64,000 nucleotides of DNA. It comes from a virus. Taxonomy: Duplodnaviria; Heunggongvirae; Uroviricota; Caudoviricetes. The notes beneath the pieces are model-generated. The model had not been told where the DNA came from. It worked only from the letters and a program-made list of their open reading frames with translations, and ran no database searches. Below, piece after piece: positions 19,867-20,395 of the stretch. The translations under genes and the position numbers were made by a program. Position 1 is the stretch's first letter. Every line of letters starts with the position of its first letter. The stretch lies in IMG/VR virus record IMGVR_UViG_3300045960_000077, positions 47,422-111,421 of that record; one strand, given 5' to 3'.

Positions 19867-19941
19867 AAACACGAGATTTCTAACTAATTTATGTTAACTG
19901 TTTACAACAGCACGATGAATGTGGTAATATAATATTTATAC

Positions 19942-20000
19942 GAAGGCACTAACAGCAATTATACAACTTCAGACCTGTACTCTGACAAGTAAATGTGCCT
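19942..20000 (+). repeat. stem-loop element A of a 5-unit array (stem AAGGCAC/GTGCCTT; loop motif CTAACAGCAATT)
   Basis: Inverted repeat read directly; the conserved motif immediately follows the 5' arm. Confidence 0.6.
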
Positions 20001-20013
20001 TGTTTCCAAATGT

Positions 20014-20114
20014 TTAGACGCATACAGCAATCCCTATATGAACCCTTCGGGGCTCGCCAGGCGTGGTTGCCATAAAAGAACCCTGTTAGCCGTTCCGATA
20101 TCGGCCGGCGTCTA
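20014..20114 (+). repeat. stem-loop element B (stem TAGACGC/GCGTCTA; loop motif ATACAGCAATCC)
   Basis: Inverted repeat read directly. The loop contains a CCTTCGGGG hairpin. Confidence 0.6.
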
Positions 20115-20128
20115 GTTTATTAACTTTA

Positions 20129-20210
20129 AGCGCATACAGCAATCATTTAATGGCTGGTGTTGGTCGACCATAACTCAGACCCGTCTGTCTATACGTTAAA
20201 GATGGCGCTT
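20129..20210 (+). repeat. stem-loop element C (stem AAGCGC/GCGCTT; loop motif ATACAGCAATCA)
   Basis: Inverted repeat read directly. Confidence 0.6.
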
Positions 20211-20239
20211 AGGCTTTACTGATTTTAAGTTTATTTATA

Positions 20240-20293
20240 AAGACACTAACAGCAACCAAACTTCTTTCTATGACAAAGAAAAGAATGTGTCTT
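20240..20293 (+). repeat. stem-loop element D (stem AAGACAC/GTGTCTT; loop motif CTAACAGCAACC)
   Basis: Inverted repeat read directly. Confidence 0.6.
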
Positions 20294-20305
20294 GAATAGC
20301 TCTAC

Positions 20306-20370
20306 AGACCCTAACAGCAATCCAGCGCCTTCGGGCACTTTCCACCATTCATGGGAAACGAAATGGGTCT
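20306..20370 (+). repeat. stem-loop element E (stem AGACCC/GGGTCT; loop motif CTAACAGCAATCC)
   Basis: Inverted repeat read directly. The loop contains a GCGCCTTCGGGCAC hairpin. It overlaps the spurious 5' extension of the next ORF. Confidence 0.6.
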
Positions 20371-20395
20371 AGTTCACACAAAAAGGAGAAGCATC

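Follow-up and report, generated by a model that had tools for sequence, protein, structure and literature searches.

What fills the gap ahead of a Ro60-like gene in a phage genome, and does it belong to that gene? The question is raised by a tailed phage (Caudoviricetes) represented by a 64,000-nt stretch of the IMG/VR record IMGVR_UViG_3300045960_000077 (positions 47,422–111,421 of the record; below, the window). Here 529 nt (19867–20395) separate the open reading frame (ORF) of a DnaB-like helicase (18466–19866) from a 500-residue ORF that starts with ATG at 20396 and encodes a DUF2828/DUF7788 protein. The gap contains five units, all on the plus strand and together spanning 19943–20373. To judge from their sequences and those of numerous relatives, they are likely to be five tandem genes for small non-coding RNAs (~55–102 nt) of a single family, undescribed so far but very widespread. 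We also consider it probable that these RNAs act as Y-RNA-like cofactors of the Ro60-like protein encoded downstream.

Architecture of the array

All five units follow one layout, in which a closing helix of 6–8 bp encloses a 2-nt spacer (UA or AU), the invariant motif ACAGCAA, and a variable interior, and the 3′ end has the form ...CUUG or ...CUAG. The sequence of the helix arms differs from unit to unit. In unit 1 (19943–20002, 60 nt), the arms are AAGGCAC (19943–19949) and GTGCCTT (19995–20001), the motif is at 19952, and a single inner hairpin (CAGAC/CUGAC) lies between AAGGCAC-UA-ACAGCAA and AAAU-GUGCCUU-G. Unit 2 (20014–20115, 102 nt; arms TTAGACGC at 20014–20021 and GCGTCTAG at 20108–20115, motif at 20024) runs from UUAGACGC-AU-ACAGCAA through a complex interior, including a CCCUUCGGGG hairpin, to GCGUCUAG. 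Unit 3 (20125–20213, core 20127–20212) is closed by TAAGCGC (20127–20133) and GCGCTTA (20205–20211), has its motif at 20136, and reads UAAGCGC-AU-ACAGCAA at one end and CGUUAAAGAUG-GCGCUUA-G at the other. The most canonical member is unit 4 (20240–20294, 55 nt; arms AAGACAC at 20240–20246 and GTGTCTT at 20287–20293, motif at 20249), composed of AAGACAC-UA-ACAGCAACCAAAC, a hairpin, and GAAU-GUGUCUU-G. Finally, unit 5 (20306–20373, 68 nt) pairs AGACCC (20306–20311) with GGGTCT (20366–20371), carries the motif at 20314, and encloses two hairpins (GCCUUCGGGC and UUCCAC...GGGAA) between AGACCC-UA-ACAGCAA and AAAU-GGGUCU-AG.

An earlier note, made from the window sequence alone, had described five tandem elements between dnaB and the downstream gene, each with its own inverted repeat and a shared motif after the 5′ arm, and extra hairpins in two of the loops. 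All of this is borne out: the shared motif is the invariant ACAGCAA, set off from the arm by two nucleotides, and hairpins of the CCTTCGGG type are found in units 2 and 5. The motif that the note placed in a conserved loop is real, but it is more aptly regarded as a single-stranded stretch alongside the helix.

The close relatives of this phage carry arrays of three to five units at the same place, with recognisably orthologous unit types. Unit 1 corresponds to the first units of loci L001, L002, L005, and L089; the interior of unit 2 resembles those of L002 unit 3, L090 unit 2, and L089 unit 2, and the interior of unit 3 those of the second units of L001 and L002.

A covarying RNA family

Related units were sought in 82 viral loci, comprising 80 IMG/VR loci that encode homologues of the window protein (39–76% identity) and two phage records. 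Fifty-nine short units, two of them from the window (units 1 and 4), formed the alignment A3; a covariance model (R1) was trained on units from other genomes together with the same two window units, and its hits were counted at E ≤ 0.01 with default filters. In A3, 96% of helix cells are paired in a fixed register to the motif, and all seven base pairs change on both sides. In the alignment A4, made of 89 distinct sequences from R1 hits, 98.4% of helix cells are paired and the covariation is 0.686, compared to 0.22 in shuffles and at most 0.16 when the registers are slid by 1–3 columns, a pairing statistic that is partly built in, since the training units were picked for having a stem. Three further observations are not built in by such selection, namely, the strand exclusivity of the hits, the excess of the motif, and the replication in an independent genome collection. 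The helix and the adjacent invariant motif are thus supported as being under selection as structured RNA, which is what the earlier note had surmised from the five window units.

The consensus of the family is (U/A)AAGRCNC-UA-ACAGCAA-(four G-free positions) ... AAAU-GNGYCUU-G, with the ACAGCAA core conserved at 97–100%. In the loci this 7-mer occurs 255 times on the plus strand and 48 times on the minus strand, against an average of 55 for permuted 7-mers. In the window it has 11 plus-strand occurrences per 64 kb, five of them inside 370 nt. The R1 scores of the window units are 54.3 bits (unit 4), 48.7 (unit 1), 29.8 (unit 2), 29.7 (unit 5), and 23.0 (unit 3; E = 7e-4, recovered only with filters off), and a scan of both strands of the window yielded nothing significant besides the five units. 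Given the clustering of the motif and these scores, the array is not a product of chance. In the minimum-free-energy folds the terminal helix is closed in five of five units and the motif is mostly unpaired.

No family in Rfam 15 matches these RNAs, and a cmscan of the window against Rfam at gathering thresholds returned only tRNAs.

Genomic coupling to the DUF2828 gene

In the viral loci, 109 R1 hits were observed, every one of them on the strand of the DUF2828 gene; 93 lie upstream of the gene and 16 downstream, and for 37 of the upstream ones the start codon is no more than 100 nt away. The same holds for 80 bacterial and archaeal loci, where all 107 hits, in 58 loci, are on the gene's strand and mostly just upstream. 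Among phages with upstream units are Listeria phage List-36 with three, Enterococcus phage PEf771 with three at E ≤ 0.05 and one marginal, and Campylobacter phage F355 with two. Downstream units are exemplified by Staphylococcus phage S-CoN_Ph5 (L085) with three, the Felix-O1-like phage wV8 (L083) with two in a tRNA array 3′ of the gene, among the genes for tRNA-Glu, tRNA-Met, and tRNA-Asn, and mycobacteriophage Silverleaf (L082) with one after the gene. The three units of S-CoN_Ph5 are overlaid by two tiny coding sequences annotated as "hypothetical protein" (5224–5313 and 5443–5571 of L085), which are probably spurious ORF calls on RNA genes. The proposal of the earlier note that a structured-RNA family is tied to the Ro60-like gene is accordingly upheld, as the units accompany DUF2828, in the orientation of the gene, across hundreds of unrelated genomes.

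The converse search, in which IMG/VR was scanned with the RNA pattern AAGACNCTAACAGCAA, is noisy: with 15 fixed bases, about 100 matches are estimated to arise by chance, and model-validated units were present in only 27 of 80 loci. A DUF2828 homologue was found on the strand of the match in 14 of the 14 loci holding one, mostly 100–300 nt away.

These data bear on the suggestion that the array belongs to a replication origin beside the helicase gene, with iterons or other DNA-level repeats as its units. The array does abut the DnaB-like gene in the window and in close relatives, but in Listeria, Staphylococcus, Campylobacter, Enterococcus, Felix-O1-like, and Mycobacterium phages, as well as in bacterial loci, the units track DUF2828 and not the helicase. 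Moreover, they are strictly confined to one strand (216 of 216 hits), their spacing is irregular (54–102 nt), and their arms covary with free sequence, which indicates selection on pairing and not on a protein-binding DNA word. An origin function is therefore very improbable.

The family is not confined to phages and bacteria. A metagenomic contig of a giant virus (nucleocytoplasmic large DNA virus; L093), identified by a major capsid protein, Rpb5, and a fused Rpb3/11/N, has three canonical units (46–48 bits) at 118–175, 369–427, and 660–717 on the minus strand of the locus. In each case a tRNA-Leu gene follows after 6 nt, the two forming part of a repeated cassette; hence, the RNA family extends to viruses of eukaryotes. 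The cassette also contains a tRNA-Arg and, as judged by eye, an apparent intron-containing tRNA, which was confirmed by neither ARAGORN nor Rfam. As for archaea, the best matches to the window protein in the genome collection (45% identity) are in two contigs of Promethearchaeota metagenome-assembled genomes (MAGs; L210 and L211) binned to Asgard archaea, which may be viral contigs inside the bins; L210 has two units upstream of the gene (1409–1472 and 1601–1664).

Association with tRNA genes and tRNA-like members

In several genomes, the units stand among tRNA genes in a head-to-tail arrangement, separated from them by only a few nucleotides. In addition, some members are themselves tRNA-like. 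Locus L022 contains three tandem "oversized tRNAs" of 117–134 nt (2316–2432, 2442–2558, and 2569–2702) that score 42.8–51.2 bits with the Rfam tRNA model and are missed by ARAGORN. Their bodies have an acceptor stem, a D arm, and a T arm, and the first ends with an encoded CCA; the anticodon arm, however, is replaced by a permuted module in the order AAAAAUG, 3′ arm, loop, 5′ arm, CUA, ACAGCAA. These elements are tRNA/Y-like chimeras. Conversely, long members in four loci (L010 2799–2935; L001 2809–2928, unit 4; L090 2745–2857, unit 3; L089 2819–2906) enclose a circularly permuted tRNA-like body, arranged as an anticodon-like hairpin, T arm, acceptor 3′ strand, ACCA, linker, acceptor 5′ strand, and D arm. 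From the permuted and chimeric members it follows that what is conserved is an RNA module in two dimensions, a helix bordered by ACAGCAA on one strand and by an A-rich stretch on the other, which can be closed at either end.

No recognisable tRNA-like part was seen in any of the five window units, whereas close relatives of the window phage own a tRNA-like unit.

Both the interleaving with tRNA genes and the permuted and chimeric members are hard to square with iterons or promoters, the alternatives that the earlier note had kept in reserve. We reject both, as the units follow DUF2828 rather than dnaB, occupy positions in tRNA arrays, are fused to tRNAs, and never lie on the opposite strand.

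The DUF2828/DUF7788 protein

The window protein (gene at 20396–21898, plus strand, 500 amino acids) has a Ro60-like fold, in which an alpha-helical ring domain is combined with a von Willebrand factor A (vWA) domain bearing the metal ion-dependent adhesion site (MIDAS) motif D293-x-S295-x-S297. The order of the two, a ring of helical repeats and then a vWA domain with its MIDAS motif, is that of Ro60. The similarity is at the level of fold only: the protein is 9–17% identical to Ro60 proteins, and searches of PDB sequences with the single sequence and with a profile found neither Ro60 nor anything relevant. In Pfam, it matches only DUF7788 and DUF2828 at E ≤ 0.01 and not TROVE (PF05731). Hence, of the TROVE/Ro60-like identity given in the earlier note, the Ro60 fold stands, in the form of DUF2828, and the membership of Pfam TROVE does not.

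Homologues are encoded by 709 deposited phage genomes, including Felix-O1-like, Listeria, Staphylococcus, Enterococcus, Campylobacter, Vibrio, Bacillus, and Mycobacterium cluster L phages, as well as by many bacterial assemblies and the two Promethearchaeota MAGs. The family is also present among the predicted structures of giant-virus proteins (Pithovirus, Marseillevirus, CroV, Mimiviridae). Its members are annotated only as "Ro-like RNA-binding protein" or "hypothetical", and the literature found under DUF2828, DUF7788, and "Ro-like RNA-binding" describes no associated RNA.

Two phages illustrate the gene neighbourhood. In List-36 (L084 6843–8054), an annotated RtcB-type "tRNA splicing ligase" follows the DUF2828 gene at a distance of 1.3 kb, and an HD phosphohydrolase is close by; in wV8 (L083 5540–8935), the DUF2828 gene directly precedes an array of 17 tRNAs. 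Both contexts are reminiscent of the Salmonella rsr-yrlBA-rtcBA RNA-repair operon. The homologue in mycobacteriophage LeBron, gp53, is toxic on overexpression; an RNA ligase and a polynucleotide kinase are further products of this phage.

Transcription of the array and proposed role of the RNAs

A consensus scan places a promoter-like site on the plus strand at 19901–19930 (TTTACA-18 nt-TAATAT with the TG of an extended −10 element), with a predicted start ~6 nt ahead of unit 1. The ribosome-binding site of the DUF2828 gene, AAAGGAGA, is at 20382–20389 (plus strand), and an intrinsic terminator with a 16-bp stem and a T run follows the gene at 21918–21953 (plus strand), closing a putative operon of array and gene. 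The scan found no terminator-like site between the promoter-like site and the gene. With a promoter-like site before unit 1 and the first terminator only after the gene, the array is probably cotranscribed with DUF2828 and then processed.

Could the units instead be repeated promoter or terminator/attenuator modules of middle or late transcription? Their AT-rich flanks, the stem in each unit, and the promoter-like site at the start of the array would fit. On the other hand, the scan detected neither pattern inside the array, the stems are followed by G(U/A)UU and not by a T run, and the invariant motif lies within the region enclosed by the helix. The same module takes the place of a tRNA anticodon arm in L022 and recurs in a eukaryotic giant virus, with its different transcription system. 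Such a role is hardly credible.

The mechanism that we favour would start from a transcript of array and gene together, running from the promoter-like site to the terminator, which would be cut into single RNAs. The shared module (helix, ACAGCAA, and AAAU) would dock the Ro60-fold protein encoded downstream, while the variable interiors, which elsewhere are hairpins or permuted tRNA-like bodies, could give each ribonucleoprotein its own partner or substrate, in the way that Y RNAs gate and tether Ro60. The field of action would likely be surveillance, repair, or protection of tRNA or other structured RNA during infection. We propose that such quality control, repair, or protection is probably the role of the system because of the tRNA mimicry, the tRNA-array context, RtcB near the Listeria phage gene, the RNA ligase and polynucleotide kinase of LeBron together with the toxicity of gp53, and the Ro60 precedent.

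Several points weigh against the units being cofactors of the DUF2828 protein. The coupling to the gene is strong but not absolute: no hit was found in 36 of the 82 viral and 22 of the 80 bacterial and archaeal loci, Vibrio phage phi-ST2 (L088) has no unit within 4 kb of the gene, and the stretches examined from 13 loci contain units without a DUF2828 gene. In unit-less genomes, the RNAs may sit elsewhere (e.g., in tRNA regions), be too divergent for the model, or be absent. Besides the pairing statistic being partly built in, the folding energies of the five window units are indistinguishable from those of shuffles (z from −0.3 to −1.9), so the support for structure is comparative, not energetic. 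The promoter-like pattern occurs at background frequency, with six sites against 5.1 expected in the region. The Rfam models of Y_RNA (RF00019) and YrlA (RF02553), the comparison proposed in the earlier note, match nothing in the window at gathering thresholds and nothing in 19800–20450 at E ≤ 10 with permissive filters. Finally, transcription, processing, binding, and function of the RNAs are what we infer, discrete transcripts and processing sites included.

An alternative that retains the protein–RNA contact is that the units are cis-acting operator sites in the leader of the DUF2828 mRNA, by which the protein autoregulates its own translation or stability. In the window and in most loci, the units occupy the 5′ untranslated region in the orientation of the gene, with no more than ~25 nt between the last unit and the ribosome-binding site, and no terminator intervenes between array and gene. 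However, 16 of 109 viral hits are downstream, and so are units of S-CoN_Ph5, wV8, and Silverleaf; units occur inside tRNA arrays, flush with tRNA ends, and in stretches without a DUF2828 gene; and chimeras with an encoded CCA exist. An operator also has no need for diverse conserved interiors. We consider a purely regulatory function unlikely; regulatory and trans-acting roles are not mutually exclusive.

A second alternative accepts the RNAs and drops the partner: they may be independent of DUF2828, for instance decoys in tRNA clusters or processing punctuation for a host factor, and merely share an "RNA island" with the gene. The 13 loci without the gene, the frequent association with tRNA arrays, and the fact that the sole Dictyostelium protein shown to bind a similar RNA class (Class I, see below) directly is an RNA recognition motif (RRM) protein would agree with this. 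It is at odds with the tight adjacency (the 37 hits within 100 nt) in lineages of otherwise unrelated gene content, and with the occurrence of both protein family and RNA in giant viruses; in addition, Ro60 provides a precedent for exactly such an arrangement (PMC4201824). Independence from the protein thus seems quite improbable.

With these RNAs, the large orphan family DUF2828/DUF7788, whose carriers include Felix O1, Listeria P100-like phages, mycobacteriophage cluster L, many gut bacteria, and giant viruses, acquires a candidate RNA ligand and hence a testable function. A second Ro60-type ribonucleoprotein system, unrelated in sequence and with its own Y-like RNAs including tRNA mimics, would be added to the known one, with a bearing on how phages handle tRNA and RNA damage or host RNA-targeting defences. 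The RNA genes themselves currently either have no annotation or are overlaid by spurious tiny ORFs.

Other features of the window

Downstream of the terminator are an ORF without a family match (21958–22542) and two methyltransferase-like ORFs (22523–23050 and 23026–23742). Methyltransferases occupy the corresponding place in the relatives L089 and L090, and in L089 a glycosyltransferase lies between dnaB and the array. Upstream, a DNA polymerase-like ORF is found at 14251–16440. A large tRNA gene cluster extends over 28518–43675 on the minus strand, opposite to the RNA array, and has no units within it. ARAGORN identifies 35 tRNAs there, including a 92-nt tRNA-Ile(tat) at 36100–36191; Rfam adds two that ARAGORN does not list (39900–39970 and 43377–43453) and misses three that it does (33160–33243, 40058–40133, and 41759–41840). 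When 50,697 deposited phage genomes were searched for near-identical DNA, no near relative came up, so the phage itself is novel; its DUF2828 protein has a 100% identical counterpart in a JGI metagenome, encoded on a 111-kb contig.

Comparison with known RNA systems

Among described RNA classes, the units resemble the Class I RNAs of Dictyostelia (Rfam RF01414). As described by Kjellin et al. (2021; PMC7919456), these are ~60 nt long and are closed by a 6-bp terminal helix of which only the structure is kept; the motif CCUUACAGCAA comes right behind the 5′ arm, the interior varies, and the ends are 5′ AAG and 3′ CUGU. The authors concluded from their search of other genomes that Dictyostelia alone possess the class. 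Shared with the units are a length of ~45–65 nt, a terminal helix of 6–7 bp conserved in structure and not in sequence, the lack of a G just after the motif, an A-rich stretch before the 3′ arm, and many paralogues with variable interiors, a few of which bear a T-arm hairpin (GGUUCGAAUCC in the Class I members concerned). Both have 5′ AAG; the 3′ end is CUGU in Dictyostelium, CUUG here, and CUGU again in the Listeria phage. The motifs, CCUUACAGCAA and NNUAACAGCAA, have an identical 7-nt core in the same position just 3′ of the 5′ arm, and the four preceding nucleotides differ (C-C-U-U in Class I, N-C-U-A or N-C-A-U in the units), as does the spacer (3 nt versus 2 nt). Class I RNAs also differ in having eukaryotic hosts and a Dictyostelium upstream sequence element (DUSE) promoter ~60 nt upstream, compared to a sigma-70-like site in a phage genome. 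Their known direct binder is the RRM protein Rnp1A/CIBP, with no reported link to DUF2828.

At E ≤ 10, the sole Rfam hit in the gap is Dicty_Class_I_RNA on unit 4 (20241–20294; 15.3 bits), which is the best hit of this model in the whole window and far below its gathering score of 41.5 bits. A model (R2) built from an alignment (A5) of 41 dictyostelid Class I RNAs only has unit 4 as its top hit in the window (18.6 bits, E = 0.012). In 634 kb of phage loci, R2 gives 29 hits at E ≤ 1, with about one expected by chance; all are on the gene's strand and nearly all coincide with R1 units. Giant viruses provide a bridge, with canonical units in L093 and with DUF2828/DUF7788 proteins of their own. 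On the protein side, a pull-down with DdR-21 recovered GuaB, NdkC, CIBP/Rnp1A, and the uncharacterised DDB_G0281243 (preprint text), and the DUF2828 family motifs have no match in the partial Dictyostelium proteome of the PMC7919456 supplements.

The resemblance may reflect homology or convergence on homologous proteins. A tentative possibility, to which we give somewhat less than even weight, is that phage RNAs and dictyostelid Class I RNAs form one ancient family of dedicated RNA partners of DUF2828/DUF7788 proteins, a ribonucleoprotein spanning phages, bacteria, giant viruses, and eukaryotes. In that case, Class I RNAs would not have arisen within Dictyostelia in connection with multicellularity, and they would work as Y-RNA-like cofactors. 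The published Dictyostelia-only view would be overturned, and a direct pointer to their missing protein partner and mechanism would be gained. A dictyostelid DUF2828/DUF7788 protein, with DDB_G0281243 as the candidate, should then bind Class I RNAs via ACAGCAA. Plants, which have DUF2828 genes, should carry cognate RNAs as well. One lead here is an Arabidopsis locus, UGUUUUC-AUU-ACAGCAAUCAAAC...GAAAAC-UG, which scored 40 bits with the Class I model of Kjellin et al. and was dismissed by the authors (Table S4, PMC7919456); it could be a true member of the family in plants. In the same table, a candidate from Capsaspora (25.8 bits) shares the layout of the Arabidopsis locus.

With tRNAs, the units share the T-arm, D-arm, and acceptor elements of circularly permuted tRNAs in L010, L001 unit 4, and L090 unit 3, and tRNA bodies with the module in place of the anticodon arm in L022, whereas the defining module, the helix with ACAGCAA, is no tRNA feature.

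Finally, in comparison with Y RNAs, the likeness suggested by the earlier note holds for synteny and the terminal helix but does not extend to membership of the Rfam families Y_RNA or YrlA, the latter being the bacterial and phage type (RF02553; Chen et al., 2014, PMC4201824). The units have a single-stranded ACAGCAA beside a 7-bp helix instead of a bulged Ro-binding helix, they lack GNCGAAN0-1G as a conserved element, in contrast to YrlA, and their partner is a DUF2828/DUF7788 protein without a Pfam TROVE match, in contrast to Ro60. In the features by which a Y RNA is recognised functionally they agree: they adjoin a Ro60-type gene, and the 5′ and 3′ ends form a covarying terminal helix. Like the Y RNAs of Ro60 and Rsr, the units specify small RNAs, frequently present in more than one copy, whose genes adjoin that of a Ro60-fold protein; a helix made of both RNA ends is the presumed site of protein binding, and RtcB and tRNA genes lie nearby in some genomes. 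As in YrlA, there is a further module that varies and that in some members imitates tRNA (T arm, D arm, closed acceptor stem); the ends of the RNA fall at the binding helix in some cases and at the tRNA-like part in others, a difference also noted between YrlA and Yrn1 (PMC4201824). The modular logic of the phage units is exactly that of the bacterial YrlA and Yrn1 Y RNAs.

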